Shown piece by piece: positions 2,798 through 47,784 of a stretch of 64,000 bases of DNA (positions are counted from its first letter, which is position 1; every line of letters begins with the position of its first letter). The notes beneath the pieces are model-generated. The model saw only the letters and a list, made by a program, of their open reading frames with translations, ran no database searches and was not told the DNA's origin. The translations under genes and the position numbers were made by a program. This stretch comes from Patescibacteria group bacterium (GTDB taxonomy: Bacteria; Patescibacteriota; Microgenomatia; UBA12405): assembly GCA_050943115.1 (NCBI GenBank), contig JBMNON010000001.1:50023-114022 (forward strand), given 5' to 3'.

Positions 2798-3481
2798 CTA
2801 TGTTTCGTGCCGCCGCCCGGAACCATAGCCATACAAGTACCCGAAGAATGCTCCCAAGGCCATTGCTAGGAGAATAATAATTGCCATTTGGCAATCATTA
2901 TCCACACCACCCCCTGTAGGAATCAGTGGGATTGGTGTTGCCGTTAAAGTCGGCTGTTCCGGCGTCTCTGTCGGAGTGACTGGCGTAGCTGTCGGTGTCA
3001 CTGGAGTCGAAGTCGGCGTCATCGGCGTTGACGTTGGTGTCGGCTCCTCCGGCGTGCTCGTAGGAACTGGCGTTTCCGTCGGCTTCACGGGCGTTTCGGT
3101 AGGCACCGGAGTCTCAGTTGGCACCTCTGGTGTACTGGTCGGAGTCATTGTAGGGATCGGGCACTTGCATGTCCACGAAACGACAATGTGCGATATGTCT
3201 TGGCAGGCACTCGAATTGTCTTTCTCCCACACTCTCCAACCGGAATCATCCCAGGAAAACCCGAAACACTCGTTCGGACTACCTTGGTATTGTCCGGCCT
3301 TGATCTGAACGAAAGCTGACTCCACCCCATGTTCACAGTCAAACGATCCAGATTTCTCCGAATCGCTATCATTCCACTCGATCTTAACGGATCCGCCTCC
3401 ACAGGTTTCTGCTACAACCCACAAAGGGGTTGAAGCCAGAACCGTAACCAAAACGATCAACAAAAAGACTCTCCACTTCAT
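2798..3481 (-). CDS. GC-rich cassette: secreted Cys-domain protein with TP-repeat linker and C-terminal sortase-like sorting signal
   Basis: Start chosen at MKWRVFLL (ATG at 3481-3479) preceded by AAGGGAGGTCTGAA SD. Signal peptide, long TPTSTPEVPTETPVPTETPV... repeats, then LIPTGGG + hydrophobic helix + RRHET tail. Local GC is clearly above the window mean. Confidence 0.55.
   Translation of the reverse strand: MKWRVFLLIVLVTVLASTPLWVVAETCGGGSVKIEWNDSDSEKSGSFDCEHGVESAFVQIKAGQYQGSPNECFGFSWDDSGWRVWEKDNSSACQDISHIVVSWTCKCPIPTMTPTSTPEVPTETPVPTETPVKPTETPVPTSTPEEPTPTSTPMTPTSTPVTPTATPVTPTETPEQPTLTATPIPLIPTGGGVDNDCQMAIIILLAMALGAFFGYLYGYGSGRRHET
2925..3165. repeat. tandem low-complexity repeats encoding Thr-Pro-(Glu/Val/Ser) linker
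   Basis: Reiterated ggcgt/ggtgt/cggag units on the + strand; the opposite strand encodes PT(E/S/V)TP repeats. Confidence 0.5.
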
Positions 3482-3887
3482 TTCAGACCTCCCTTTCCTG
3501 TTCGTGTGAAGTATATTATCGGCCATCATTCTCACCACTATGGCAAGAATGTTTAACAAGGTTAGTTGCCAAGGGGCGGCAACTCTACAACAGATGGGGG
3601 TTAAAAGGGGTAATATATCCAAAAGGGACACTACCGGCAAATTTTACCGGCACTATCCCTCCTGGATATTTGATCTCTCGGATTGTTAAAGAACTATAAT
3701 CCACCCTCATTGATTAGCAATTAACCAAAAGTGGGAACTATAATACGACATTATAGGTTTTAATAGCTTAAAAGTCAATCACTTGATAGCCACTTTCCAC
3801 CATTCCTTGAAGCAAAATTCCAAAAATGTTATTCTTAAGAATAGATATCCTTGTTTGTGCCTTGATAATTACAAATTTTGATTTTAC

Positions 3888-14604: not shown

Positions 14605-14629
14605 CCCCCAATCTTTCTTAACTTTTTTG

Positions 14630-14701
14630 CAGGCCCATCAGGATTCGAACCTGAAATAGCAGTTTTGGAGACTGCGGTGATAGCCATTTCACTATGGGCC
14701 T
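14630..14701 (-). tRNA. tRNA-Trp (anticodon CCA)
   Basis: Reverse complement folds as a cloverleaf: acceptor AGGCCCA/TGGGCCT, U8, D-stem GTGA/TCAC, anticodon stem GCAGT/ACTGC with loop CTCCAAA, T-arm TCAGG-TTCGAAT-CCTGA, discriminator G73. CCA is not encoded. Confidence 0.8.
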
Positions 14702-15046: not shown

Positions 15047-15056
15047 AAAAATTTTG

Positions 15057-15130
15057 TGGACCTGGGGGGACTTGAACCCCCGACCTTCCCCATGCCATGG
15101 GGACGCGCTAGCCAACTACGCTACAGGCCC
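15057..15130 (-). tRNA. tRNA-Ala (anticodon GGC)
   Basis: Reverse complement GGGCCTG...CAGGTCCA with G3:U70 Ala identity pair, anticodon stem TCCCC/GGGGA with loop ATGGCAT, T-arm GGTCGGGGGTTCAAGTCCCCC. Confidence 0.85.
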
Positions 15131-16557: not shown

Positions 16558-17442
16558 ATGCCAATCACCAAAGCTATCATCGCCGCCGCCGGCCGCGGTA
16601 CTCGCTTTTTACCTGTTGTTAAAGCCTACCCCAAAGAACTTATCCCTCTTCTTTCCAAACCGAATATCCAACTATTAATCGAAGAAGCCATCGGCGCCGG
16701 AATTACTGACATTATGATCGTCCAACGTCAGGGTGAAACTGCCATAGAACGCTATTTCACTCCCGACGTGAAGCTCGAAAAATACCTCTCGGAAACCAAC
16801 AAAACCCCTTATTTGGATAGTCTTAAACGAATCTGGTCCCAAGCAAAAATCCACTTCACTTTTCAATCCTCCGACCTACCTTATGGCAATGCCTCACCCC
16901 TTCTGGCTTCCCGCGAATTTATCGGCCAGGAATCCTTTGTCTACATGTTTGGCGATGATTTAACCGTTGAACCCACACCCGGCCAATATCTAAAAGAACT
17001 TATCAACACCTACGATAAATATCAGCCTGCTGTTTTGCTCGGTGGCCAATACGTTCCTTGGGAAGAAATCAACCGTTACGGCTCTATGAAATTTATAGAA
17101 GACAAAAAATACCCTCAGCGTGTTACTGCCGTTTTGGAGAAAATGGAACCCAACCAAGCTCCCAGCAATTTTGCCCAGGGCGGCCGCTTCGTGGTTTCCG
17201 GCGCCAAAATATTCCCCGTTTTGGACAAACAAAGGTTGTCCCGGGATAACGAACTTTGGTTTGCCGATGCCAACAATACTTTAGCCCAAACTGATGTGGT
17301 TATGGCACAGGAAATCAAAGATGGTACCTGGTTAACTACCGGAGACCCCCTGCGTTGGCTGAAAGCCAATATCGCTCTGGCCCTACAGGATCCCGATATC
17401 GGCCCCAGCATCAAAGATTACCTGAAAAGCCTCCATATCTAA
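16558..17442 (+). CDS. galU: UTP--glucose-1-phosphate uridylyltransferase
   Basis: KAIIAAAGRGTRFLPVVKAYPKELIPLLSKPNIQLLIEEAIGAGITDI matches the GalU N-terminal signature. Confidence 0.8.
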   Translation: MPITKAIIAAAGRGTRFLPVVKAYPKELIPLLSKPNIQLLIEEAIGAGITDIMIVQRQGETAIERYFTPDVKLEKYLSETNKTPYLDSLKRIWSQAKIHFTFQSSDLPYGNASPLLASREFIGQESFVYMFGDDLTVEPTPGQYLKELINTYDKYQPAVLLGGQYVPWEEINRYGSMKFIEDKKYPQRVTAVLEKMEPNQAPSNFAQGGRFVVSGAKIFPVLDKQRLSRDNELWFADANNTLAQTDVVMAQEIKDGTWLTTGDPLRWLKANIALALQDPDIGPSIKDYLKSLHI

Positions 17443-17660: not shown

Positions 17661-17921
17661 ATGGATTTTAGGAAATATTCTTCTCTAATCCTAATATTGC
17701 TTGTCCTCTCGGCCATCAGCTTTTATGCTTTTGTCCAGATAGACCGCTATTTATCCCTCAAAGAGCAAAGCCTAAAAAATGACGCTGTCATTAACTGTCT
17801 TCGTTTTAGCGGTCAAAACAATCTTCTTAACAAGGAAGGCCAGATTACCGTTTCTTACCCTCTAAAAGAAATTTACACCTACTGTCTTAATGATCAGGGT
17901 TATTCTACTAACTGGAAATAA
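17661..17921 (+). CDS. hypothetical small membrane protein
   Basis: ORF with one TM helix. Confidence 0.3.
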   Translation: MDFRKYSSLILILLVLSAISFYAFVQIDRYLSLKEQSLKNDAVINCLRFSGQNNLLNKEGQITVSYPLKEIYTYCLNDQGYSTNWK

Positions 17922-17937
17922 GATTAGTATCCTATAA

Positions 17938-17966
17938 CTTGACATTATTACACATTTATTATATAA
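17938..17966 (+). promoter_or_regulatory. consensus sigma70-like promoter TTGACA-N17-TATAAT driving GC-rich cassette A
   Basis: TTGACA at 17938-17943, a 17-nt spacer, TATAAT at 17961-17966. Preceded by the recurrent TATCCTATAAC motif. Confidence 0.5.
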
Positions 17967-18290
17967 TATAGGTCATACAATCAAACAATTGATTGTTAGT
18001 ACTTTTTAAAAATAAAAGTAGTTGTCATAGGAGAGACGGGAGGTTGGGTGGCTCCTCTTAAACCCCCTGCTCCCCTTCTCCTTTGGCAATTCACTTGCCA
18101 AAAGTATGGACAAGACCTTTCCGGCACAGCGCTGGAAATCAGCTTTCCATACGGTTCTTTAACAACCTAGTTTCTTTACCCGCAAAACAACACCATATTG
18201 GGCATCTTCAAGGTGCCCGGCATGGTGTTGTTTTTAACATGTGGTTATCGGGCTCGTATCAAACAAACAGTTCGAAAAGGAGAAGCTGTC

Positions 18291-18848
18291 ATGAGAACGT
18301 TCTACTTTCTGCTTGCCGTCGCCTTGGTGTTTATGCCTGTTGGCTGTGGCGCCATCTATGCTGCGGTCGGGGGACGCAGTCTGATCGTCGGTCAACCGGA
18401 GGGATACATCCCACCGGCCGCTGACAGTCCCGCTGCTGATCCGACCCCAGTGCCGCCCACTGCCACCGCCCCCGTGACTCAGACTCTCCAGCGAAACGCG
18501 GAAGGCTACGTCGGTCCCACGACCGCCGAAGTCTCCGCCCTGGTTGGGGTGGATCTGGTTCGAGTGGGGACGGAGCCTTCCGCCTGGACATGGCGAGGGA
18601 AGCCTTCAACGGCAACCATCACCTGTCCGGAGGGCTTCTCATGCACGCTCGACGCCGTCGACGACATCACCGTCGTCGTCGGTGGAGTCAACCAGGAGGT
18701 TCTTGTTTACGCAGGGACCTTCAGATGGCTCGAGGCATACCCGCAAGGGATATGCGGCATCTTCGACTCGGAGCAGGAGTTTGCACTGAAAGAGGGCTAC
18801 CAAGTCCGCTATCAGGAAGCTTCTGGCTACGAGGCAGTCTGCCCATAA
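18291..18848 (+). CDS. GC-rich cassette A: secreted protein with Pro/Ala/Thr-rich linker (PPAADSPAADPTPVPPTATAPVTQT) and C-terminal globular domain
   Basis: ATG at 18291 sits 8 nt after AAAGGAGAAG. The signal peptide is MRTFYFLLAVALVFMPVGCG. The region is about 60% GC against about 40% background. Confidence 0.55.
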   Translation: MRTFYFLLAVALVFMPVGCGAIYAAVGGRSLIVGQPEGYIPPAADSPAADPTPVPPTATAPVTQTLQRNAEGYVGPTTAEVSALVGVDLVRVGTEPSAWTWRGKPSTATITCPEGFSCTLDAVDDITVVVGGVNQEVLVYAGTFRWLEAYPQGICGIFDSEQEFALKEGYQVRYQEASGYEAVCP

Positions 18849-18876
18849 CCACACCCACCCCAACAACACCCCCCGT

Positions 18877-18913
18877 GGGAGAGACCTGACATCGTCGTCA
18901 GATAATCTCTCCC
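18877..18913 (+). terminator. nested stem-loop downstream of cassette A gene (terminator-like, weak U tract)
   Basis: GGGAGAGA...TCTCTCCC with inner CTGAC/GTCAG; followed by tcggggtggggtggaatttt. Confidence 0.4.
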
Positions 18914-18946
18914 TCGGGGTGGGGTGGAATTTTGGGTAAGAAACTA

Positions 18947-19005
18947 GGTATGCGTCCTCTGATGAGTATCAGAGCTGATGAGTCCAAAAGGACGAAACGC
19001 AGACC
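18947..19005 (+). ncRNA. hammerhead ribozyme, type III topology
   Basis: GGUAUGCGUC^CUCUGA-UGAGUA-UCAGAG-CUGAUGA-GUCC-AAAA-GGAC-GAAA-CGCAGACC. It carries the GUC cleavage triplet (cut after C18956), closed stem I hairpin, CUGAUGA, 4-bp stem II with AAAA loop, GAAA, and open stem III (GCGU/ACGC plus extension). Confidence 0.75.
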
Positions 19006-19044
19006 ATTAAAACTTAAGCCCGATTATTCGGGCTTTCTTTGTAA

Positions 19045-19833
19045 ATGACTACAATTGACCTAATCATCCCCGTCTTCAACGAAGAAAAGCGTCTTCAAAA
19101 AACCTTTGAGGCTCTAAATTCTTTTGCCCCTCAAAAAGGCTTGAAAGTCCAAAAAGTCATTTTTATTAATGACGGTTCTGCCGACTCTACTCTAAAACTT
19201 ATCAAAACCACCAAAATTAAATTCAAAAAACATGTTATTTCCTATTCTCAAAACCAAGGTAAAGGTTATGCTGTTAAACAGGGCTTACTTGCTGCCCGAT
19301 CTGACTACGCCCTCTTTTTTGATGCCGATATGTCTACTCCTCTTACTGAAATTAAGAAATTCCTGCCTTATACCAAAAAAGGATGCCCAATCATAATTGG
19401 TACCCGCAAAAACGGCCACTCCACTGTTATTGTTCATCAACCCTTTGTCAGGGAACATTTGGGCCGTATTTTCACTAGACTCTCCCAAATAATCCTGGGC
19501 ACTTCAGTAACCGATTTTACTTGTGGCTTTAAAGCTTTTTCCAAAGAAGCCTACTCCGTAATCGCCCCCCTAATGCAAATAAACCGTTGGGGTTACGACA
19601 GCGAAATCATTTTTATTGCCCAAAAACACCAGCTTCCTATTCAGGAAAAATCAGTTACCTGGTCTGACGAGCCCAACACCAAGGTCAAATTACTAAAAGA
19701 CGGTTTCCGTTCTCTTAACGAACTTTTTCAAATTCGTTTAAACTATTTGAAAGGTAACTATGACCAAACAAACACAAAAAAAACTTGTCACTTCCCCTAT
19801 AACCGCACTCTTCCTACTGAAACTACATCTTAA
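19045..19833 (+). CDS. GT2 polyprenyl-phosphate sugar synthase-like glycosyltransferase (DPM1/GtrB/Ppm1-like)
   Basis: DLIIPVFNEEKRL, VIFINDGSADST, QGKGYAVKQG, FFDADMSTP (DxD) are the GT2 motifs in the expected order. Confidence 0.7.
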   Translation: MTTIDLIIPVFNEEKRLQKTFEALNSFAPQKGLKVQKVIFINDGSADSTLKLIKTTKIKFKKHVISYSQNQGKGYAVKQGLLAARSDYALFFDADMSTPLTEIKKFLPYTKKGCPIIIGTRKNGHSTVIVHQPFVREHLGRIFTRLSQIILGTSVTDFTCGFKAFSKEAYSVIAPLMQINRWGYDSEIIFIAQKHQLPIQEKSVTWSDEPNTKVKLLKDGFRSLNELFQIRLNYLKGNYDQTNTKKTCHFPYNRTLPTETTS

Positions 19834-19934
19834 TCCTAAACACTCAACTTGCCGCTCTTCTGTTACACTTTTATAAATAGTGTCTGTTTTAAAGCTAAAA
19901 TTACAGAACCACTTCCGCCTGCTTATCATTAATT

Positions 19935-21161
19935 ATGGACCATAAATTCGATCTTATTGTTATCAGCAGCTATCCCCCTAAAGGCCAAATCCATGGCAAA
20001 GGTACTGTAGGCGTAGCTATGTGCGCCAAAAACACTCTTCTGTCTATGTCCCGGGGTAAAAATCCTCCCAAAATCCTTGTTCTGGCTGAAAAGTTAATAA
20101 ATTCTCCCCAAAAATACCGCGAAGACAATGTCACTGTCAAAAGATGCTGGCAGAGAAACAGTCTGTCAATTTACTACCATCTTCTCGAAAATCTGCTTCA
20201 AAACCCGACCAACAAAGTTATGATCGAGTTCGAGGTTGCCATGCTTGGCAATCCCCTAATCAACGTCTTCTTCCCATTATTTATCCTGATCCTAAGGCTT
20301 TTTGGTATAAAAATTACCGTTGTCATTCATCAGGTTGTCCTCAACTTTTCTGAAATAAGCGGGCACATCGGTCAAAAAAAGGACAGCCCCAAAAACAATC
20401 TTCTATCCCTTTTGGCCCACGTCTTTTACCGTCTTGTTGTCCTCTTTTCCAACCAAACCATAGTTTTTGAACAGTTTCTCAAAAACCGTCTGGGGATTAA
20501 CGATCCTAAAATTAAAATCGTTCCCCTTGGCGTTGAAAACTATAAATTCCAAAAACCCAAGAATAATAAAACTTTTACCATTACCGTTTTTGGCTTTCTG
20601 GCCTGGTACAAAGGCACCGATTGGATTGTAGAAAAAATCAGCCGCTACCTCGACCGCCATCCCAAAGCTAATCTTAATCTCATTATCGCCGGTGGTCCCA
20701 ATCCCAACCACATCGATAAACCCCACTACCAGCAATTTCTCTCTAAAATTAACCGTCTTTCAGGCAAACACCCCCAAAACATAACCATTACCGGTTTCGT
20801 CCCCGAAGATAAAATAAAGGAATATTACCTTTCCTCCGACCTGATTGTACTTCCTTATCGTGTCGGCATGTCCTCTTCCGGACCCCTGTCCCTGGCTTTT
20901 AGTTACCACACACCTTTTTTAATCTCCGAAAAAATTGCCTTATCTCTCGATACTTTTGATTTTAAACAATCCCTGGAACAATTCTCAATTTCCCCCCGCC
21001 AAGTTACATTTAAGCTGAACTCAAAGGATTTTCTTAATAAGCTAGAACTCCTTGGGAAAAATCCAAAACTTTTAAACCAAATATCACTTGTAAGCCGTGA
21101 TATGTCCCAAAAACGCGACTGGGCTGAAATCGGAAAAATGTACAAAGAAATTGTCCTATAG
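19935..21161 (+). CDS. glycosyltransferase, GT-B fold (GT4-like)
   Basis: C-terminal ITITGFVPEDKIKEYYLSSDLIVLPYRVGMSSSGPL resembles a GT4 C-domain; moderate support. Confidence 0.5.
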   Translation: MDHKFDLIVISSYPPKGQIHGKGTVGVAMCAKNTLLSMSRGKNPPKILVLAEKLINSPQKYREDNVTVKRCWQRNSLSIYYHLLENLLQNPTNKVMIEFEVAMLGNPLINVFFPLFILILRLFGIKITVVIHQVVLNFSEISGHIGQKKDSPKNNLLSLLAHVFYRLVVLFSNQTIVFEQFLKNRLGINDPKIKIVPLGVENYKFQKPKNNKTFTITVFGFLAWYKGTDWIVEKISRYLDRHPKANLNLIIAGGPNPNHIDKPHYQQFLSKINRLSGKHPQNITITGFVPEDKIKEYYLSSDLIVLPYRVGMSSSGPLSLAFSYHTPFLISEKIALSLDTFDFKQSLEQFSISPRQVTFKLNSKDFLNKLELLGKNPKLLNQISLVSRDMSQKRDWAEIGKMYKEIVL

Positions 21162-21269
21162 TTGTAAACTATACGCATTTATTATATAATTCCCCTGTTC
21201 ATAAGAATCTTTAAAAATATTGCATTTTTATAGGATTTTTATGATGCTCTTTGACAGACTGCTAGGATT

Positions 21270-21320
21270 TGTGACGCAATTATTTAAGCCTATATAATAG
21301 GCTTGGCTATTTGCGTCACA
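21270..21320 (+). promoter_or_regulatory. promoter TGTGAC-N17-TATAAT embedded in nested perfect palindromes (candidate operator) for cassette B
   Basis: Outer inverted repeat TGTGACGCAA (21270-79) / TTGCGTCACA (21311-20). The inner palindrome AAGCCTAT-ATA-ATAGGCTT (21286-21304) is centred on the TATAAT -10 box. Confidence 0.45.
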
Positions 21321-21362
21321 AAAGGTGATGCATATTGTGCATAGAACAAAGGAGAAACTCAG

Positions 21363-22013
21363 ATGAAGTGGCAAGTTCTTTTAGGTCTTTTCGTTCTGGT
21401 CGTGATGGTCAGCTTCCCGGCTCTTGCCGAAGAGACAAAGACCATCTCCGTCTCAGGAAACACTGCCTGTTTAGCCTTCGTCGCCAACTACGACGGAGCA
21501 GCAACAGTCCATGTGTTGTGGGGCATCCCGGGCACTCCTCGTGAAGATCTTGTCTTCACCGAGCGGACTGTCCTGGTTGTCCCCCCGGAAGGCGCAAATA
21601 CCTTCTGGTTTGGAGGAAGCGAGGAGTTTGTGGTGGCAACTGATCTAACTCCGCTGGGAGAAGATTGGTATGCTATACCTCAAGTCCTGCAACCGACACC
21701 AGAACCGACTCCGCAACCGACTCCTGCACCGACATTCGATGTTTTCCTCCCCCTTGTCTTCTCGCCCCCCAGCACCATTACCATCGAACGTGATGGTAAC
21801 AATCTGGTCTTACGGGCCTCTAGGCAACCAAGTACCGACCTCTATCTCCTCTGGGGAGTGGAAAACACACCTCGACATAACCTGGTTTTCATCAATCAGG
21901 TCGCTACCACACCGATTCCCCAAGGGGCACAAACCTTCTGGTTTGCCGCACCCAACTTCAGGGTAAATACCAACTTTCAGGACCTCGGTTCTGATTGGTA
22001 CCAAATCCCCTGA
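21363..22013 (+). CDS. GC-rich cassette B: secreted two-domain protein (internal duplication) joined by PTPEPTPQPTPAPT linker
   Basis: AAAGGAGAAACTCAG-ATG RBS; signal peptide MKWQVLLGLFVLVVMVSFPALA. Two homologous ~60-aa modules (VLWGIPGTPREDLVF...FWFGGSEEF...DWYAIP and LLWGVENTPRHNLVF...FWFAAPNF...DWYQIP). Confidence 0.6.
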   Translation: MKWQVLLGLFVLVVMVSFPALAEETKTISVSGNTACLAFVANYDGAATVHVLWGIPGTPREDLVFTERTVLVVPPEGANTFWFGGSEEFVVATDLTPLGEDWYAIPQVLQPTPEPTPQPTPAPTFDVFLPLVFSPPSTITIERDGNNLVLRASRQPSTDLYLLWGVENTPRHNLVFINQVATTPIPQGAQTFWFAAPNFRVNTNFQDLGSDWYQIP

Positions 22014-22025
22014 TTTCCATGCCAA

Positions 22026-22058
22026 GCAGGGCGGCTGCCTCCAGGCTCGCCGCCCTGC
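22026..22058 (+). terminator. GC-rich 10-bp perfect stem-loop after cassette B gene
   Basis: GCAGGGCGGC-tgcctccaggctc-GCCGCCCTGC; no clean U tract. Confidence 0.45.
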
Positions 22059-22133
22059 CTCGGCCTCTCCTCCCCCGCACCACCCACTAGCAGTCTGTTT
22101 ATAATAAAGTAAGGAATTTATTTATCCTGCCTC

Positions 22134-24827
22134 ATGAAACTAGTCAAAACCATCTGGCCTCAAATTTTTCTCACCCTTATCTTAGGATTGGTCTTCTATC
22201 AAAACTATACTCCCGGCACCTACCTTACCGGCTGGGACAACCTTCACCCCGAATTCAATTTACCTGCCAATATTAAACGTTCTATCTTTTCCACCTGGCA
22301 AGAATACCAGGGTCTGGGGCTTTTAGCCGGCATGGCCCACGCCGCCGATCTCCCCCGTCAGCTTTTCCTTCTCCTCATCTCACCTCTAGTCCCCATTGAT
22401 CTATTAAGATACGTTTATCATTTTCTCCTAATTGGCCTTGGCACTTTTGGCGTTTATTATCTTGGCCTTTTTGTCACCCAAAATAAATCAAAAATTCCCT
22501 CATTTATCGGCGCCCTTTTTTATCTCCTTAATTTCGGCTCCATCCAATATCTTTCCCTGCCTTTCGAACCCTATACCACCTTCTGGGGCTTCCTGCCCTG
22601 GCTGATTTTGTCTCTTTTCTGTCTTCTTAAATCAAACACTAAAAAGAACTTTTTAATTTTCATCTTGCTCAATTTCTTGGCAGTCCCCTCTTTTTATGTC
22701 CAAACAATTTTTTTGGTTTACCTTATTTCTGTTATATTAATCCTCTTTCTCCAACATCTTCCCACCAATACTACTAACCATATCAAATTATCTCTCCTCA
22801 TCGTTTTTAGCATTCTTGTAGTTAACTCCTTCTGGCTCCTGCCCAATATTTACTTTACCCTATCCAAAGTCTCCGTCACCCAAAACGCCATGATAAATCT
22901 CATGGTCACCGACCAGTTTATCGAACAAAATTACCACCGGGGAAAAATCACCGACTTTATCCCCCTCCGCTTCCTTTACTATGACATAAAAGATAACCAG
23001 CAAAACCCTCCCATTCCCCTTTTCAATACCTGGCACCAGCATTTTTCCTCACCCCTCATTGTCGCTATCTCCTATCTATTTTTCTCCCTTGTCCTACTGG
23101 GCGCCATCTTTTCCAAAAACCGATATAAAAGATATTTCACCACTCTCCTCCTTTTTACCCTAATGGGCCTTCTTTCAGCTACTTTCCCCTTCAATCTGCT
23201 CAATACCATTCTTCGTGCCACCCCCCTGCTTAGCCAGATTTTCCGTAATTCTTTTACCAAACTTATCGTTCCCTGCCTTGTCTCCCTGTCGATACTATTG
23301 ACTTTTAGTCTGGATTTCCTGCCTAAAATTGCCCAGAAGTTCTCCATCCTTCTGCTACCCCTTCTTTTTATATTTTCTCTTCCGGCATTTAAAGGCAACT
23401 ATATCCATCCCCAAATGCGAAACAGCATCCCCGTAGAGTATTTTGAACTTTTTTCCTTCCTCAAAAACGTATCTACCCATTCCCGCATTATGAACCTGCC
23501 CCAATACAGTTTTTGGGGCTGGACAACTTACAGATGGGGGCCAACCGGTTCCGGTTTTCTCTGGTATGGCATCGACCAGCCAATTATGGACCGAGCTTTT
23601 GATGTCTGGAGTTCTGAACTGGAAAACTACTATTGGCAACTTCACTACGCTCTCCTCACGGAAAACCAAAACCAATTTAACCAAATCCTTGAAAAATATA
23701 ACATTGGCTACGTCCTTTTCGATAAAAATGTCATTCTGCCGGACGCTGGCAGCTCCAGTCGGATTGTCAGGGATACCGAAAACCTCTTATACCATTCCCA
23801 GCTTCTGGAACCGCAAGAAAGCTTTGGTCAAATTACGCTCTTTAAAGTCAAAAATCCTCCCCAAATCATCAACAATGTTACGATTCTCGACAACCCCCAA
23901 AACATTAATAATCCCGAACAGTTCCAGCACCTAGACCAAGCCTATTCCGACTTTGGTCCCTATATTACCTCAGGCTCTAATACCCAAATCCTCTATCCTT
24001 TTGGATCCCTTTTTACCAACCGCCCCGAAAAACCCGGCTTTTTACTCTCTCATTCTGATAGTTCCCAAACCATCCTGCTTTCTTCCGAATATAGCTCCCA
24101 CTCTCAAACTATTTCCCCCTCTTGGGAAAGTTGCCAGGGAACCCAAAAACTCCTCAATGCCCAAAACGAAGAAAAAACCTCTTTCTTTAGCTGTCAGTCG
24201 GATCTCGTCACTAATACCGCCTACCTCATAAAAATCACCGCGAACAACACCTCAAATCGCCCTCTTCTCTTCAAGGTCTTTTCTTTACTTGACAATCGTC
24301 TTTATGCTGACAGTCGGATTACAGAAAACGGCCGTTCTGAAACTTTAATCGTCGTCCCTCCCGGCAATAAATTTGATCAGGGTATCGGAATTAATTTTTC
24401 CAGCAATTCTTATTCAAATAAAACATCAAACAATCTTATCGAAGATGTCTCCATTTCCCCCATGCCCTATCACAGTCTTATCAGTCTCAAAACTCCCGTT
24501 ACTGAAAACCATAGCCCTGCCTTGACTTCACCCTTTAATGTTAAGCAGCCGAATCAAACCTTTTACAAAATCAACTTGGGCAGTTTACCCCACAAACCCA
24601 CCCTGGCTCTCTTCCAGTCCTACCACCCCGGCTGGTTGGCCTTCTCTCTAAACCCTCTACCCCAAATCCTAAAGCAACATTATCATCTTAGTAACTGGGC
24701 TAATGGCTGGCATCTTGAAAACAACCTAAGTAATCAAACCGTTTACGTGATATTCCTACCCCAACTCCTTCAATATATTGCTTTTTTCTTTACACCTCCC
24801 TTGCTCCTTCTAATCCTAAGAAAATAA
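22134..24827 (+). CDS. large polytopic membrane protein, putative GT-C fold glycosyltransferase (YfhO/Pmt/ArnT-like)
   Basis: 897 aa with more than 10 predicted TM helices in the N-terminal half. The first extracytoplasmic loop has acidic residues (TGWDNLHPEFN). Large C-terminal soluble region. The family assignment is tentative. Confidence 0.45.
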   Translation: MKLVKTIWPQIFLTLILGLVFYQNYTPGTYLTGWDNLHPEFNLPANIKRSIFSTWQEYQGLGLLAGMAHAADLPRQLFLLLISPLVPIDLLRYVYHFLLIGLGTFGVYYLGLFVTQNKSKIPSFIGALFYLLNFGSIQYLSLPFEPYTTFWGFLPWLILSLFCLLKSNTKKNFLIFILLNFLAVPSFYVQTIFLVYLISVILILFLQHLPTNTTNHIKLSLLIVFSILVVNSFWLLPNIYFTLSKVSVTQNAMINLMVTDQFIEQNYHRGKITDFIPLRFLYYDIKDNQQNPPIPLFNTWHQHFSSPLIVAISYLFFSLVLLGAIFSKNRYKRYFTTLLLFTLMGLLSATFPFNLLNTILRATPLLSQIFRNSFTKLIVPCLVSLSILLTFSLDFLPKIAQKFSILLLPLLFIFSLPAFKGNYIHPQMRNSIPVEYFELFSFLKNVSTHSRIMNLPQYSFWGWTTYRWGPTGSGFLWYGIDQPIMDRAFDVWSSELENYYWQLHYALLTENQNQFNQILEKYNIGYVLFDKNVILPDAGSSSRIVRDTENLLYHSQLLEPQESFGQITLFKVKNPPQIINNVTILDNPQNINNPEQFQHLDQAYSDFGPYITSGSNTQILYPFGSLFTNRPEKPGFLLSHSDSSQTILLSSEYSSHSQTISPSWESCQGTQKLLNAQNEEKTSFFSCQSDLVTNTAYLIKITANNTSNRPLLFKVFSLLDNRLYADSRITENGRSETLIVVPPGNKFDQGIGINFSSNSYSNKTSNNLIEDVSISPMPYHSLISLKTPVTENHSPALTSPFNVKQPNQTFYKINLGSLPHKPTLALFQSYHPGWLAFSLNPLPQILKQHYHLSNWANGWHLENNLSNQTVYVIFLPQLLQYIAFFFTPPLLLLILRK

Positions 24828-24849
24828 TACCAAGATAATATCCTATAAC

Positions 24850-24878
24850 TTGATTTTATTGTCTTTTTGATGTATAAT
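24850..24878 (+). promoter_or_regulatory. sigma70-like promoter TTGATT-N17-TATAAT driving cassette C
   Basis: TTGATT 24850-55, 17-nt spacer, TATAAT 24873-78. Preceded by the same TATCCTATAACTTGA 15-mer seen upstream of cassette A. Confidence 0.45.
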
Positions 24879-25114
24879 TCCTACATACTAACAACCGTTA
24901 GTAGATCTTTAACAGTATTGGTATTCTTCACCAAATATTGCTTTTGGAGTATGAGTCCAATACAGTTCTTTTACATGACAGGTCAGGGTTTGGGAATTGG
25001 TCTTATAGTTGGGCCCTTAAGGCCGACAAGGTGTTTGTCGGTCCTAAGGGCTACAACTATCAACTGACCCTATCCCGGGCCCTAGGGTCACAAGTATCGC
25101 TCGAAAGGAGCAAC

Positions 25115-25777
25115 ATGGTCATCAGCTGGAGTAACATCATTCTGTTTCTTGCGGGGATCGGAATCATCTTCATCGCTTTTCTTGCTTTGGGCGGAGCCAT
25201 CTACTGGTGGTTCTTTAAGAAGCCCACGGAAGAGCAACCCGAAGAGGTCGAGCCTGCCCCCCGACGCCGAGAGGAACACGACGAACCCGTCGTCGAACGT
25301 ACGACTGTACGTCGTGAGACTACGGTTCGCCCCGCGCGTCCACGAGAAGCCGTCATCGAAGAAGAGGTGGAAACTCGTCCCGTCGTCCGTCGTCGTCCGG
25401 CCACCCCCCCCGTTGTCCGCCGTCGTGCTCCAGCCCCCCCCAAGGAGGTAACCTCCTTCAACGAGGCTACCGACAAACTGGTGGATTATGTCGATCGCTA
25501 CGACACGAAAGAGATCCAGCTCCAACGGGACATTCGTCCTGCCTGGTCGGCTTTTCGAAGCTCCCTCGACGCGGCCGTTTCTGTCGGTGACAATCCGAAG
25601 ATCAACGTCACGAAAGTGGCCAAAATCCTCATTGACGCCGAGCAGGACGCCGCCAAGCGAAGCATGCCGGGCTACGCTCGAGAGTTCAGGTCCTACCTGA
25701 AGCAGCTCAACGTGGAGATCACCGAAGAGTCTTCGGACAAATCGGATGTACCACCTCCTCCCGCTCTCTCCGACTGA
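25115..25777 (+). CDS. GC-rich cassette C: N-terminally anchored protein with Arg/Pro/Glu-rich linker and C-terminal domain
   Basis: AAAGGAGCAAC-ATG RBS; TM helix IILFLAGIGIIFIAFLALGGAIYWWFF. Linker PRRREEHDEPVVERTTVRRETTVRPARP...RRRPATPPVVRRRAPAPP; about 60% GC. Confidence 0.5.
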   Translation: MVISWSNIILFLAGIGIIFIAFLALGGAIYWWFFKKPTEEQPEEVEPAPRRREEHDEPVVERTTVRRETTVRPARPREAVIEEEVETRPVVRRRPATPPVVRRRAPAPPKEVTSFNEATDKLVDYVDRYDTKEIQLQRDIRPAWSAFRSSLDAAVSVGDNPKINVTKVAKILIDAEQDAAKRSMPGYAREFRSYLKQLNVEITEESSDKSDVPPPPALSD

Positions 25778-25917
25778 CCCTCAACCTGTCATAACCGCGC
25801 ACTGCGCAAAATTTGGACCCTTTGGGGACCATCTTTTGTAATGTGCGCGGCTTGACCTTTGTCCAAAAATTATTTTTTAGCCAGAGGCCAAGCCCTAAAT
25901 TTTATAATTCAACAAAA

Positions 25918-25942
25918 AGCAGTCTTGAAGGGACTGCTTTTT
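25918..25942 (+). terminator. rho-independent terminator after cassette C
   Basis: GCAGTC-ttgaaggg-GACTGC followed by TTTTTT. Confidence 0.7.
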
Positions 25943-26144
25943 TGTTAGTCTCAAAATAGTCCTATAATAATAGTTTATTATTCCCTAGTTTCAGGCAATT
26001 ATTTGGCAATAACGCCATCCCTAATTTCTTGAAACTTTATTGTTCTTTGACAACCGACCGTAACTGATACAGCCAGAAAAGCTGATAAAAATCTTCTCGA
26101 TTTTTCTGGCTGTTTCAGACTTTTTCACAAGAAGGGAGTCACTC

Positions 26145-40716: not shown

Positions 40717-41277
40717 CTACACGCTTACATCAACTGTTCTCACCTGAGCGACTCCGTTTCGGTTAAAAATTCTCTCAACTTCATTACTCCTGCCGTCAGC
40801 TACCGGCACCATCAGCATTACATCTTCACCCCGAACCTCCTCATCGTAATAAGCTCCCGCCTCTTCCCTGACTCCACCGGCTCTCTCCAATGCTCCAATA
40901 AGACCGCCGATAGCTGCTCCCAATACCGCCCCCGTCACTGTTACGGCTGCAATCCCGGTTAACCCCAAAGCTCCGGCTATGGGTCCGACAAACAATATTC
41001 CTGCCAATCCAGGCACAATCGTTGCCACAATACCATAAATCAGGCCTGCAAGGGCTCCGATAATTGCTCCGGTGATAACTCCGTTACCGATATTTCCTGT
41101 CCTATCCCTCCTCATGGTTGTCACGCCCCCCCTTCTTCCAGCCTCACTAACATTACTTTGCCTCCGGGAGCCGCCCAGTTCCATATCCTCGACATCAAAT
41201 CCGGCCCCCCTTAAATCTCTTAAGGCTTTGTCGGCATCGTCGTAGTTATCAAAAATTCCGACCATCATTCCTGCCAT
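40717..41277 (-). CDS. general-stress-like membrane protein (YflT/DUF1269-like N-domain plus glycine-zipper TM segments)
   Basis: GIFDNYDDADKALRDLRGAGFDVEDME N-domain; GxxxG-rich TM region. Confidence 0.35.
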   Translation of the reverse strand: MAGMMVGIFDNYDDADKALRDLRGAGFDVEDMELGGSRRQSNVSEAGRRGGVTTMRRDRTGNIGNGVITGAIIGALAGLIYGIVATIVPGLAGILFVGPIAGALGLTGIAAVTVTGAVLGAAIGGLIGALERAGGVREEAGAYYDEEVRGEDVMLMVPVADGRSNEVERIFNRNGVAQVRTVDVSV

Positions 41278-47639: not shown

Positions 47640-47784
47640 TGAAAACATCGTTTATAATCAGCCTATCCTTAAACCGAAGACAGTAGGTACCCGCAACCCG
47701 GGTCGAAGCATCCTACCGAGGCAGACACAAATCAATTTTGTTGTTGACACCTCGCTTCGGCGGGGTTTTTTATTTTAAATACAT
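47640..47784 (+). promoter_or_regulatory. putative rplJ (L10) leader with attenuator-like hairpin
   Basis: Structured 145-nt leader ending CCUCGC-UUCG-GCGGGG followed by UUUUUUAUUUU, immediately upstream of rplJ. Confidence 0.45.

Follow-up and report, generated by a model that had tools for sequence, protein, structure and literature searches.

Bacterial hammerhead ribozymes are mostly linked to prophages (PMC3088659), and those that flank genes have been proposed as processors of polycistronic RNAs (PMC3088659, PMC6765202). The genes of abundant S-layer proteins combine strong promoters with mRNAs whose stability is 6-10 times the average (PMC8056022), while in streptococci GtrB and a GT-C enzyme glycosylate Ser/Thr-rich, disordered extracytoplasmic regions (PMC12041528). 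The locus described here shares features with each of these systems. Within the window, that is, the whole 64,000-nucleotide stretch analysed, three GC-rich cassettes (A, B and C) are interleaved with glycosyltransferase genes on the + strand in the order cassette A, hammerhead, GT2, GT4, cassette B, an 897-aa protein and cassette C, as an earlier note had read it and as the coordinates bear out:

16558..17442, +, sugar-1-phosphate nucleotidyltransferase for NDP-sugar supply (PF00483, E 2.5e-20), opening the conserved cluster
17661..17921, +, conserved 86-aa protein with a hydrophobic segment at its N-terminus (relatives by tblastn)
17928..17967, +, cassette A promoter, a TATCCTATAAC element fused to -35 TTGACA, then a 17-nt spacer and -10 TATAAT
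17974..18290, +, cassette A 5′ leader of ~317 nt (MFE z -7.3) with a conserved hairpin and a GTTCTTTAACAA box
18291..18848, +, cassette A coding sequence, 185 aa: signal or lipoprotein-like peptide, P/T/A linker, Cys-containing C-terminal domain (GC 0.59)
18855..18927, +, long hairpin 3′ of the cassette A stop codon, without a U-tract (MFE structure; counterpart in locus L002)
18949..19003, +, type III hammerhead (Rfam RF00008 42.5 bits, E 1e-6; our own model R1 67.9 bits)
19016..19040, +, terminator-like hairpin (19016-19035) and T-run in the hammerhead-GT2 gap, specific to this species
19045..19833, +, GT2 resembling polyprenyl-phosphate sugar synthases (GtrB, ArnC, DPM1, PgfS; PF00535, E 3e-23)
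19935..21161, +, GT4 glycosyltransferase of GT-B fold (PF13692 2.6e-10; PF00534 3.7e-8)
21162..21362, +, cassette B promoter region (two promoter matches) and structured leader (z -6.1)
21363..22013, +, cassette B coding sequence, 216 aa: Sec-type signal peptide, two homologous ~80-aa domains with a PTPEPTPQPTPAPT linker between (GC 0.53)
22026..22058, +, GC hairpin of 10 bp behind cassette B, lacking a U-tract (read from the sequence; no call in the terminator scan)
22134..24827, +, AftD-like GT-C, 897 aa: polytopic N-terminal domain, then C-terminal CBM-like beta-sandwich domains
24839..24878, +, cassette C promoter with a TATCCTATAACTTGA element as in cassette A
24885..25114, +, cassette C 5′ leader of ~230 nt (MFE z -7.6)
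25115..25777, +, cassette C coding sequence, 220 aa: N-terminal TM anchor, charged Glu/Arg/Pro-rich region, C-terminal domain (GC 0.56; start taken as ATG 25115, the longest ORF beginning at 24938)
25915..25945, +, cassette C intrinsic terminator, a GCAGTC / GACTGC stem (inverted repeat) then TTTTTTG

Conservation of the cluster

Judged by comparison of the genomes, the link between a surface-protein gene and this glycosyltransferase cluster is conserved across Microgenomates. The nucleotidyltransferase gene occupies the same slot in related loci L002, L014 and L040, and tblastn places relatives of the 86-aa protein beside the cluster in L002, L009, L018, L011, L012 and L063. Within 7 kb of the GT-C gene at 80 related Microgenomates loci, 62 of 319 ORFs upstream are GC-rich vs 3 of 314 downstream (Fisher p 1e-16), and P/T/A-rich stretches occur in 27 of the 38 loci having a GC-rich ORF upstream. 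The slot is GC-rich also in relatives whose GT-C is 35-50% identical, and cassette GC (0.53-0.68) lies above the background of each related locus examined (0.31-0.50). At 30 loci, the ORF ahead of the hammerhead lies above background GC in every case (mean +0.11), with a mean of -0.02 for the GT2 gene after it. The 12-mer CCTATAACTTGA, present in the promoters of A and C, recurs at 18 or more related loci, where it precedes GC-rich surface ORFs by 300-550 nt; both this element and the leader hairpin of A are specific to Microgenomates.

The syntenic locus L002, whose GT-C is 50% identical, carries a cassette of 61-68% GC in the same slot as A. The two units agree in their promoter, in leader motifs, and in the 3′ hairpin and hammerhead, but encode unrelated proteins (BLASTP E 9). 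Neither B nor C is present at the matching L002 junctions, the GT4 and GT-C genes abutting and the SHMT gene following GT-C after 3 nt, and the cluster there has an additional 676-aa protein. Since the gene inside a conserved frame varies between lineages, some gene exchange has occurred. The surroundings are made up of housekeeping genes (MurB, SHMT, TK and dTMP kinase among the neighbours in the window and its relatives), and no integrase, mobility or phage gene was found among the genes around the cluster.

Glycosyltransferases and candidate acceptors

Among solved structures, GT2 comes nearest to GtrB, ArnC and DPMS, which are polyprenyl-phosphate glycosyltransferases (E about 1e-11), and its top NCBIfam match is PgfS (6e-22, under the cutoff of that model), all NCBIfam equivalog cutoffs being missed. 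The 897-aa protein has no Pfam match; it has 1344 homologues, some with PF11847, and an invariant GWDNLHPE loop motif. Its AlphaFold model (pLDDT 86.9, pTM 0.88) retrieves AftD as the best Foldseek match in the PDB (E 3e-16, TMq 0.59), followed by STT3, PglB and AftA, while the C-terminus matches AftD weakly in sequence (E 0.6). The GT-C fold and its pairing with a polyprenyl-phosphate-sugar synthase, both proposed in the earlier note, thus held up. The GT-C enzyme is AftD-like, however, and not the PMT (GT39) type that the note had expected from Ppm1/Pmt O-mannosylation, a process of Actinobacteria. The protein is built like AftD of mycobacteria (PDB 6W98, 6WBX, 6WBY; PF11847), with soluble, CBM-like beta-sandwich domains after a GT-C membrane domain, but it is 10% identical and ~500 residues shorter, and the organism is without mycobacterial-type arabinogalactan. 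With streptococcal GtrB/PgtC2 and Pgf (PgfS + PgfM) (PMC12041528) and with Ppm1/Pmt, the locus shares the pairing of a polyprenyl-P-sugar-synthase-like GT2 with a polytopic GT-C, as well as candidate acceptors that are anchored or secreted and carry disordered P/T/A(S)-rich linkers; unlike in those systems, the candidate substrate genes sit inside the enzyme operon.

At 185-220 aa, the cassette proteins are small, and they represent several uncharacterised families that are unrelated to one another. Their N-termini are all hydrophobic, in agreement with the signal or anchor sequences ascribed to them earlier. P/T/A linkers had been attributed to all three; those of A and B are present as quoted, while the linker of C is Arg/Pro-rich. 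It is preceded by a KK-flanked TM helix, so that by the positive-inside rule the charged region of C may be cytoplasmic. This region, in which Ser and Thr are scarce, is probably cytoplasmic, and exposure of C on the cell exterior is unlikely; on this predicted topology, C is a poor glycosylation-substrate candidate. Cassette proteins are nonetheless plausible glycan acceptors, with A and B, whose P/T/A linkers are predicted to be extracytoplasmic, most likely the candidate acceptors or partners of the cluster's glycan. Relatives of the A protein are found in L006 and L004 at 38-41% identity and more weakly in L037 and L062, with distant ones at 24-25% in L008 and L009 (selected by eye, then aligned); relatives of B at 27% lie downstream of GT-C in L014. 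Cys, Gly and Pro are kept among the homologues over this range of 24-41% identity. A word index of 5.8 billion proteins yielded no homologue of A or B from outside Microgenomates, and a phmmer search of 1.84 billion representatives with C returned a 98% identical variant and no other relative.

Composition, folding and expression signals of the cassettes

The GC-richness first noticed in the cassettes (53-59% vs 43%) persists under codon analysis. Against a window mean of 0.43 and 0.39-0.43 in the glycosyltransferase genes, A reaches 0.59, B 0.53 and C 0.56 (peaking at 0.66, 0.56 and 0.63 over 300 nt), and GC3 is 0.64, 0.55 and 0.63 vs 0.38-0.49. The cassettes also lack the genome's extreme strand skew, their GC3 skew being -0.17 to -0.24, whereas other genes on the + strand lie at about -0.5 to -0.6. 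From amino acids and background codon usage, the expected GC would be 0.525 for A (observed 0.595), 0.496 for B (0.535) and 0.485 for C (0.565) over the background of 0.43, so about half of the excess stems from amino-acid composition and about half from synonymous codon choice; for the pooled "cassette-like" genes the synonymous share is inflated, since GC was the criterion by which they were picked. General expression-linked codon bias is not the source of the cassette GC3, since GC3 is at background in the genes of ribosomal proteins L10 and L7/L12.

Folding of the coding RNA exceeds that of synonymous shuffles (z -4.6 for A, -4.2 for B and -2.3 for C; controls -1.2 and -1.7), which indicates selection rather than ancestry. 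At 10 other loci, the upstream ORF has a mean z of -3.3 and the adjacent GT2 of -0.7, L002 and L020 being the two in which excess coding-region folding was not found. The coding RNA would be GC-rich because its proteins contain much Pro, Thr, Ala, Gly and Val and because synonymous sites are apparently selected for intra-RNA pairing; the same base pairing would also account for the lost strand skew.

Each cassette had been credited with its own near-consensus promoter, and this stands for A at 12/12 (TTGACA-17-TATAAT, 17939-17967) and at 10/12 for B (21162-21190 and 21269-21298) and C (24850-24878), with the limit that the promoter scan by itself has low specificity (21 sites vs 13 +/- 3.9 in shuffles). 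A 43-nt block is common to the A and C promoters, and cassette B is identical to the -10 region of promoter A at 18 of 19 nt. The long structured leaders and good Shine-Dalgarno sequences reported earlier recur in our data for all three cassettes, by the z-scores listed and by an AAAGGAG 5-8 nt ahead of each ATG. Leader A, found by nhmmer at 18 loci or more, contains the conserved hairpin GGAGAGA...GGTGGCTCCTC...TTCTCC (18023-18093), whose 13-bp outer stem covaries, and the GTTCTTTAACAA box at 18154-18165; the hairpin model R2 detects ~22 loci, on the + strand, with a single match in the window. Terminators, also claimed for every cassette, apply to A (the hairpin with T-run at 19016-19035) and C; the hairpin of B is without a U-tract, making read-through into the GT-C gene likely. 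The cassettes resemble genes of S-layer and other abundant envelope proteins (PMC8056022) in their consensus-like promoter, long structured 5′ leader, signal peptide and implied high, stable expression, and some S-layer genes likewise adjoin glycosylation genes. Unlike in S-layer genes, the cassette coding region is itself GC-enriched and over-folded and the 3′ end would be ribozyme-defined, and the proteins are of 185-220 aa and from several families.

The hammerhead and the reading of the locus

The window hammerhead has a complete catalytic core, its unconstrained MFE recovers the three-way junction, and cleavage is predicted 3′ of C18956, in the GUC triplet 18954-18956. Its score lies below the RF00008 gathering score of 48.5, most related hammerheads falling slightly under the same threshold (one of six scanned there passed). 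Among 30 homologous ribozymes, pairing covers 90% of cells, double changes affect 15 of 16 pairs, and the CUGANGA and GAAA core is invariant; covarying stems around an intact core point to purifying selection on the active fold. Model R1 gives 47 matches at E<1 in ~42 of 82 loci (~13 of the 47 from outside the set used to build it), all but one on the GT-C strand. Where at least 3 kb of upstream sequence is available, 31 of 55 loci have a hammerhead within 7 kb, and at about half of related loci none is detectable. The ribozyme usually ends 0-16 nt ahead of the GT2 start codon, as counted where the downstream ORF is callable, a gap that leaves no space for a separate GT2 promoter; in this species, the terminator-like hairpin between the two may keep read-through to GT2 low. 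Catalytic core and three-stem architecture are those of gene-flanking type III hammerheads (Perreault et al. 2011, PMC3088659), for which the proposed role is also alike, namely cutting polycistronic RNA into units of differing fate. The HF1/HF2 halovirus hammerhead lies 13 nt ahead of a start codon, and here too the ribozyme stands between cistrons and close upstream of a start, while the tandem hammerheads either side of a single ORF in L035 and L040 recall prophage ones (PMC3088659). The difference from those hammerheads is that the present one sits in a housekeeping chromosomal cluster and is syntenic lineage-wide at one specific junction, that of a surface-protein gene and GT2. Within the library of papers searched, hammerheads were not connected to Patescibacteria or to the candidate phyla radiation in any paper.

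The three cassettes are native units with heavily folded mRNA, found lineage-wide in Microgenomates, and not foreign DNA. The earlier note had suggested a high-GC donor, and recent acquisition from one such as an actinobacterium, supplying new substrates to native machinery, could explain the atypical GC and GC3, the lost host skew, the missing B and C in L002 and the variable gene within a conserved frame; P/T/A linkers, moreover, are common among actinobacterial secreted proteins. Outlier composition and patchy presence in one relative are likewise what the cassettes have in common with composition-defined genomic islands. Yet mobility genes around the cluster and donor homologues among the proteins searched are lacking, relatives of A and B being confined to Microgenomates and C having none beyond its variant, whereas position and regulatory frame (the lineage-specific 12-mer of A and C, the leader A hairpin, the matching unit in L002) are conserved and GC-rich genes upstream of GT-C are a lineage-wide rule. 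The composition is better accounted for by RNA-folding selection and amino-acid content, so the donor reading is largely refuted and a foreign origin very unlikely. A GC-rich island in an AT-rich genome is classically read as a sign of structured RNA, and with predicted folding of -0.36 to -0.46 kcal/mol per nt and several overlapping ORFs on both strands, the islands might be mainly structured non-coding RNAs with incidental ORFs. We regard this as the least likely explanation of all, given that each ORF has a consensus Shine-Dalgarno, an ATG and, at the N-terminus of its product, a signal peptide or TM helix, that homology is kept at the protein level, that cassette B holds two diverged copies of a protein domain and differs between strains solely by an in-frame 12-nt indel of its PTPQ repeat, and that an Rfam scan of the islands gave no match. 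Between these two in likelihood, and so highly improbable, is the view that hammerhead and cassette are phage or mobile-element remnants and the ribozyme has no role in host expression: the same core has at least 120 matches in viral contigs, the tandem arrangements look prophage-like and bacterial hammerheads are mostly phage-associated (PMC3088659), but the slot just ahead of GT2, on the same strand, is fixed in dozens of divergent genomes among housekeeping neighbours, and the fold shows signs of purifying selection.

A more serious alternative, possible but doubtful in our estimate, keeps the RNA features as they are and has the cluster make a wall- or membrane-linked polysaccharide or glycolipid, the GC-rich genes encoding co-regulated, abundant envelope proteins that are unglycosylated (roles such as glycan binding or anchoring can be imagined). 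AftD, the top fold, acts on a polysaccharide (arabinan) and not on protein, and the CBM-like domains, the probable location of C and the cytoplasmic GT4 with the 676-aa protein of L002, which suggest oligosaccharide assembly, fit the same picture. The next-best folds, STT3 and PglB, are protein glycosyltransferases, however, and P/T/A-rich stretches are frequent beside the cluster, of the kind that streptococcal GtrB-type GT2 and GT-C pairs glycosylate (PMC12041528).

A little better than an even chance can be given to our preferred reading, in which native surface-protein units with stabilised mRNAs are co-transcribed with a lipid-linked-sugar glycosylation operon and parted from it by ribozyme cleavage. 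Counting against it are the sub-threshold score of the window's hammerhead, the terminator-like hairpin before GT2, the absence of a ribozyme from B and C and its non-detection at about half of related loci, the missing excess folding in L002 and L020, the polysaccharide acceptor of AftD, and the probably cytoplasmic, Ser/Thr-poor charged region of C. Under the preferred reading, an NDP-sugar pyrophosphorylase would feed an extracytoplasmic lipid-linked-sugar pathway of the GtrB/DPM1-like GT2, the GT4 and the AftD-like GT-C. Each cassette would combine a strong promoter (with the 12-mer in A and C), a long structured 5′ leader and folded coding RNA into a probably abundant, long-lived mRNA, B and C being units of the same type with their own promoters. 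The cassette A transcript would pass the U-tract-less 3′ hairpin into the hammerhead, and cleavage after C18956 would leave, on the upstream side, a surface-protein mRNA capped by a hairpin and carrying a terminal 2′,3′-cyclic phosphate, and, on the downstream side, a glycosyltransferase mRNA starting with a 5′-OH. The block would thus be a native cell-envelope locus across Microgenomates (Patescibacteria), uniting glycosylation enzymes with surface-protein expression cassettes, in which hammerhead cleavage could allow one promoter to give two RNAs differing in stability and translation.

Layout of the cluster and its enzymes

The earlier note had read this region as a candidate self-contained protein O-glycosylation module, with substrate genes that it suggested were horizontally acquired, possibly from a high-GC donor, and the seven elements that it named are all found on the plus strand in the order that it gave. 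The features of the window are as follows, with the cluster listed before its surroundings.

18291-18848, + strand: cassette A, GC-rich surface-protein gene
18949-19003, + strand: hammerhead ribozyme
19045-19833, + strand: GT2 glycosyltransferase gene
19935-21161, + strand: GT4 glycosyltransferase gene
21363-22013, + strand: cassette B, GC-rich surface-protein gene
22134-24827, + strand: gene for the 897-aa GT-C protein
25115-25777, + strand: cassette C, GC-rich surface-protein gene
2798-3484, - strand: fourth GC-rich (0.52) surface-protein gene, leader to about 3780, outside the cluster
14629-14701, - strand: tRNA-Trp(CCA), an ordinary feature
15056-15130, - strand: tRNA-Ala(GGC), an ordinary feature
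40717-41277, - strand: GC-rich (0.52) ORF of 186 aa with hydrophobic segments and a high content of Gly, Ala, Ile and Leu
47656-47781: ribosomal protein L10 leader (55.8 bits), an ordinary feature

The cluster is headed, as in its relatives, by an NDP-sugar pyrophosphorylase gene (16558-17442) and is flanked by housekeeping genes for MurB, SHMT, thymidine kinase, dTMP kinase and dCTP deaminase. Around it, neither integrase nor phage genes are called, and the window is chromosomal DNA of a candidate-phyla-radiation bacterium. It matches the Logan contig SRR31061296_877 (77.8 kb). At the Rfam gathering threshold, the window yields the tRNAs and the L10 leader only.

The GT2 enzyme matches PF00535 (E 3e-23), and its nearest PDB structures are GtrB, ArnC and the archaeal dolichyl-phosphate mannose synthase (E ~1e-11), with other GT2 enzymes at 1e-4 or weaker. 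Its top NCBIfam matches are PgfS, PgaC/IcaA, ArnC, AglJ and PpgS, where PgaC/IcaA is a processive polysaccharide synthase outside the polyprenyl-phosphate glycosyltransferase type. These scores all fall far under their cutoffs (PgfS 78 vs 500), and the matches span only residues 4-180 of the 262-aa protein. By sequence, GT2 resembles the polyprenyl-phosphate sugar synthases, a similarity that does not extend to an equivalog assignment. GT4 is an ordinary GT-B enzyme.

The 897-aa GT-C protein has no Pfam match (E < 0.1) and no NCBIfam match, and it has 1344 homologues in Patescibacteria, the closest of which belong to Candidatus Shapirobacteria. PF11847 is present in 3 of the 120 homologues listed; the window protein falls outside this profile, and a profile search against AftD in the PDB gives just E 0.6. 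A structural model built from a 30-sequence alignment (pLDDT 86.9, pTM 0.88) has three AftD entries as its best Foldseek matches in the PDB (E 3e-16 to 9e-14, TMq 0.54-0.59), with STT3, PglB and AftA next. In GWDNLHPE, an acidic motif that is conserved in the first loop on the outer side, residues D35 and E40 are invariant in 30 homologues. Judged from this model, the protein is a GT-C enzyme by fold, as had been proposed, and neither a transporter nor a member of an unrelated family. The proposed Pmt type gives way to an AftD-like one, as no PMT family is found in Pfam or NCBIfam and no PMT structure appears among the top PDB matches. From the fold and the neighbouring GtrB-like GT2, we infer that the enzyme uses a polyprenyl-phosphate sugar donor at the outer face of the membrane. 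In outline, then, the suggested enzymology stands, with a GT2 resembling polyprenyl-phosphate sugar synthases and a GT-C partner. Close relatives encode an extra protein of 655-676 aa, without a Pfam match, between GT2 and GT4 (locus L002, 6724-8754; L003, 1742-3772; L004, 1411-3378), which is absent from the window.

Near-identical strain variants of the window (L086-L088) differ mostly in these enzymes. GT2 diverges by 3.2% between L086 and the window (19045-19833), against 0-0.8% in neighbouring cassettes and other genes, and the GT-C N-terminus diverges by 6-14% in L087 and L088 (against window 22134-22761). This pattern would mark the glycosyltransferases, and not the surface proteins, as the site of recombination or diversifying replacement. 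Strain-level hypervariability or targeted mutagenesis of the cassettes is rejected, with a single difference over 558 nt in A and one repeat indel in B. The repeat is a 12-nt tandem array (21689-21733) that codes for the PTPE/PTPQ linker of cassette B, and its copy number varies by one unit between strains.

The surface-protein cassettes and their shared expression frame

Sorted by eye, the cassette-type proteins form at least three families, and many of them run from a cytoplasmic zinc ribbon through a TM helix and a PT linker to an outer domain. Searches of Pfam and NCBIfam with the cassette proteins, eight cassette-like relatives and the 676-aa protein of L002 find only N-terminal zinc ribbons, in one of them. 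Word-index protein searches with A and B return only strain variants (98-99% identical), while tblastn against the fetched loci finds relatives at 27-41% identity, and an orphan status is rejected for both; the cassette A family reaches 38-41% identity to proteins of L006 and L004. Cassette C remains an orphan, finding only itself by phmmer against 1.84 billion representatives. An AlphaFold model of cassette B made with no alignment is unusable (pLDDT 41).

The Pro/Thr/Ala-rich linkers ascribed to all three proteins are present in A and B, but the linker of C is Arg/Pro-rich. By sequence, A and B would fit the layout of O-glycoprotein substrates, in which a signal peptide or TM anchor is followed by an extracytoplasmic, disordered S/T/P-rich segment. 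In C, KK directly follows the TM helix, and the region is rich in Arg, Glu and Pro and poor in Ser and Thr, so it is probably cytoplasmic. The protein of the fourth gene has a signal peptide, a Cys-containing domain and a PT-repeat stalk of ~90 aa, and it ends with the LPxTG-like LIPTGG, a TM helix and an RRH tail, which together form a sortase-type sorting signal.

Most of the expression signals credited to the cassettes are borne out. Cassette A has a perfect TTGACA-17-TATAAT promoter and B and C each match at 10 of 12 positions, the leaders are strongly folded relative to shuffles (z = -7.3 for A, -6.1 for B and -7.6 for C), and AAAGGAG precedes the ATG in all three. A terminator-like hairpin with a T-run follows A and C, but B has a GC hairpin with no U-tract. 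A promoter block of 43 nt is common to A and C, and in the region of the -10 A and B agree at 18 of 19 nt. With one mismatch permitted, a locus has about one copy of the 12-mer CCTATAACTTGA; in at least 18 loci it precedes a GC-rich surface-protein ORF by 300-550 nt, and within the window it is found at A and C only.

The first ~250 nt of the cassette A leader are recognised by nhmmer in at least 18 loci. At the core of this leader lies a hairpin, GGAGAGA ... GGUGGCUCCUC ... UUUCUCC, whose 13-bp stem covaries and whose loop GGUGGCUCCUC is conserved; our model of it gives strong plus-strand matches in ~22 Microgenomates loci, sometimes as 2-3 tandem copies (for example L046, 7517-7810; L014, 6988-7137; L053, 6660-6811), and one match in the window (18023-18093). 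Rfam contains no match to this hairpin, which is a candidate new cis-regulatory RNA. Its loop, GGCUCCUC, holds CUCCU, complementary to the Shine-Dalgarno sequence, and one may speculate from this that the loop controls translation. A further box, GTTCTTTAACAA, occurs twice in the window, in the leader of cassette A and in that of the fourth GC-rich surface gene (3683-3694).

The syntenic Shapirobacteria locus L002, whose GT-C is 50% identical to that of the window, reveals how the frame relates to its contents. Here, the order is two NTP-transferases, an 83-aa homologue of the window's 86-aa ORF, an ORF of 61-68% GC, GT2, the 676-aa protein, GT4, GT-C and SHMT. The GC-rich ORF shares with the window the promoter CCTATAACTTGACAT ... 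TATAATATAGG, the leader motifs AGGAGAGAYGGG ... TTCTCCTTTGGCA and a 3′ hairpin, and a type III hammerhead lies 16 nt upstream of the GT2 start codon. The proteins inside this shared frame are unrelated (BLASTP E 9), which means that the expression frame is old and conserved and that the gene inside it has been replaced.

A further 80 loci were fetched via the GT-C family from Shapiro-, Roizman-, Levy-, Woese- and Gottesmanbacteria and unclassified Patescibacteria, and about half contain GC-rich islands a few kb upstream of the GT-C gene. If ORFs of at least 120 aa are counted and those at least 0.08 above background are taken as GC-rich, 62 of the 319 that lie up to 7 kb upstream qualify, against 3 of 314 downstream (Fisher p 1e-16). 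Such an upstream ORF lies on the GT-C strand in 38 of the 55 loci whose sequence reaches at least 3 kb upstream, and in 27 of these 38 it encodes a run of 25 residues of which at least 60% are Pro, Thr, Ala or Ser. Slots B and C do not occur everywhere. In L002, GT4 abuts GT-C and SHMT begins 3 nt after it; in L078, as in the window, a gene (60% GC) separates GT4 from GT-C; in L016 a GC-rich gene follows GT4; cassette B relatives lie downstream of GT-C in L014; and in L077 a GC-rich gene located downstream bears the promoter motif. The database records of many related contigs (L006, L010-L013, L015-L017 and others) name them as 'uncultured Gammaproteobacteria bacterium' MAGs, and that of one as 'Candidatus Methanoperedens'; with their Microgenomates-type GT-C cluster, these contigs have probably been mislabelled or mis-binned.

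A chromosomal hammerhead at the gene junction

The window copy has the full hammerhead core, with GUC at 18954-18956 followed by CUGAUGA and GAAA, and the unconstrained MFE structure of the window RNA reproduces the three-helix junction. Stems I and II are loop-closed and stem III is open. Against Rfam RF00008 it scores 42.5 bits (E 1e-6 in a 9-kb search), short of the gathering score of 48.5, which 1 of 6 related copies passes (L046, 49.2 bits); since most scored copies lie just under this score, routine pipelines miss them. A pairing-aware pattern recognises type III hammerheads in about 30 related loci, and the core CUGANGA ... GAAA is invariant in 30 homologues. Our covariance model, built from 30 hammerheads, returns 47 hits with E < 1, of which ~13 lie outside the seed and all but one are on the GT-C strand. 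Stem cells are paired in 90% of cases, vs 29-41% with partners slid, a figure that is partly built in because the seed was chosen by pairing, and double (compensatory) changes are seen in 15 of 16 pairs. This selection effect does not extend to the diversity of pair types, to the additional hits or to the constant position.

That position is 70-250 nt past the stop codon of the GC-rich gene, and in loci with a callable downstream ORF the ribozyme usually ends 0-16 nt upstream of the GT2 ATG. Because such a gap leaves no space for a promoter of its own, co-transcription followed by self-cleavage is the parsimonious reading. In the window transcript, the predicted cleavage site follows C18956. 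Read-through in the window may be partial, because the ribozyme is separated from GT2 by a terminator-like hairpin (19016-19035) that is specific to this species. Searches with Rfam find no other ribozyme class near B or C (E up to 10) and no substitute ribozyme in loci without a hammerhead (gathering threshold).

Viral contigs often contain the core with a GUCC/GGAC stem II, in agreement with earlier surveys (PMC3088659). As the core is common in phages, the motif alone is unspecific, and the case against a phage origin rests on context. The function of bacterial genomic hammerheads has long been an open question (PMC6765202), since the majority of copies lie in variable prophage contexts, and our literature search found no publication joining hammerheads with Patescibacteria, the candidate phyla radiation or Microgenomates classes. 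Both terms occur together, for the candidate phyla radiation, only in a paper on an RNA-polymerase domain, which exists in two versions.

Paired hammerheads bracket a single GC-rich ORF in L035 (286-339 and 1430-1484) and in L040 (7706-7760 and 8978-9040), and in L054 two hits (1079-1152 and 2967-3027), one of them weak (E 0.05), lie around three ORFs. Bracketing hammerheads would yield an mRNA with a 5′-OH and a 2′,3′-cyclic phosphate. RNA with these ends is the substrate of RtcB-type circularisation.

Composition, mRNA folding and the possible role of the cassettes

The compositional difference described earlier is real, with a GC of 0.59 in A, 0.53 in B and 0.56 in C, vs a window mean of 0.43 and 0.39-0.43 in the three GT genes, and a GC3 of 0.64, 0.55 and 0.63, respectively, vs 0.38-0.49. 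It also persists in a codon-usage analysis, where cassette GC lies 0.04-0.08 over the amino-acid expectation. When the background codon usage of each locus is taken as the reference, amino-acid composition and synonymous choice each contribute about half of the GC excess, with C- and G-ending codons up and T-ending codons down; because the pooled cassette-like set was selected by GC, the three window cassettes are the safer evidence. The GC of the 186-aa ORF at 40717-41277, unlike that of the cassettes, is wholly due to amino-acid composition (observed 0.52, expected 0.53).

An extreme strand asymmetry extends over the entire window (1-64000) regardless of gene orientation, and is also seen in L002 and L004. 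GC3 skew is about -0.5 in plus-strand genes and +0.3 to +0.5 in minus-strand genes, and sliding GC skew spans -0.1 to -0.55 over all 64 kb, far exceeding typical bacterial replication skew. In the cassettes, GC3 skew drops to about -0.2, a signal absent from the earlier note.

The coding RNAs were compared with synonymous shuffles, in which codons are swapped among identical amino acids so that protein, codon usage and GC are all fixed. Folding z values are -4.6 for A, -4.2 for B and -2.3 for C, against -1.2 for GT2 and -1.7 for thymidine kinase. Across ten other loci, the gene preceding the hammerhead has a mean z of -3.3 (below -2.5 in 8 of 10) and the adjacent GT2 -0.7. Folding energy per nt is -0.25 to -0.46 kcal/mol in cassette genes and -0.16 to -0.25 in controls.

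Several explanations for the GC-rich genes can be weighed against these results. Acquisition from a high-GC donor, as the earlier note had suggested, would account for the atypical composition, but slot A is also filled and GC-rich in relatives, and the search for a donor phylum found no homologues outside Microgenomates and no mobility genes; taken together, the features of a horizontally transferred island were not found. For an integron-like or mobile-cassette reading, neither recombination sites nor an integrase were seen. Ribosomal protein genes lie at background GC3, which speaks against general expression-linked codon bias, and the low divergence of the cassettes between strain variants speaks against hypermutation. 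Horizontal transfer is not required for GC-rich islands in an AT-rich genome, as selection on mRNA folding can give the same signature, including the loss of skew: strong within-strand pairing needs G roughly equal to C, which would also explain the lowered strand skew. We therefore favour the reading that the cassettes are under selection for highly structured, presumably long-lived mRNAs. S-layer genes, which have strong promoters and stable mRNAs, provide a parallel (PMC8056022).

Whether the cassette proteins receive the glycan is a separate matter. They may be the acceptors of the cluster's glycan, given their conserved linkage and probable co-transcription with the GtrB-like GT2 and the GT-C enzyme and, for A and B, linkers that are P/T/A-rich and, by sequence, probably extracytoplasmic. 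In streptococci, GtrB and a GT-C enzyme glycosylate Ser/Thr-rich disordered regions, shielding them from proteolysis (PMC12041528). Against this reading, the nearest structure, AftD, acts on polysaccharide, a GT4 is present, and the region of cassette C, with little Ser or Thr, probably faces the cytoplasm.

The first observation is confirmed and extended, in that known parts occur in a lineage-wide variant whose wiring we have not found described. The cassettes for surface proteins have a promoter and a leader dedicated to them, their GC-rich coding RNA is over-folded, and a hammerhead encoded in the chromosome sits where they join the glycosylation operon. We tentatively propose, as a possibility that we hold at rather less than even, that the main surface proteins of Microgenomates have a dedicated RNA-level architecture, in which a class-specific promoter, a leader hairpin (perhaps a riboregulator) and a selected, GC-rich, base-paired coding sequence are combined with a housekeeping hammerhead that splits the surface-protein mRNA from those of the glycosylating enzymes. 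If true, a bacterial hammerhead would for the first time have a cellular role outside phages that is conserved and can be assigned. Its fixed place between surface-protein gene and GT operon in a large uncultured lineage leads to a concrete hypothesis, the differential processing of one transcript. The locus also indicates which envelope (glyco)proteins of episymbiotic bacteria are probably the major ones and what machinery probably modifies them; the surfaces of these bacteria mediate host and phage contact.
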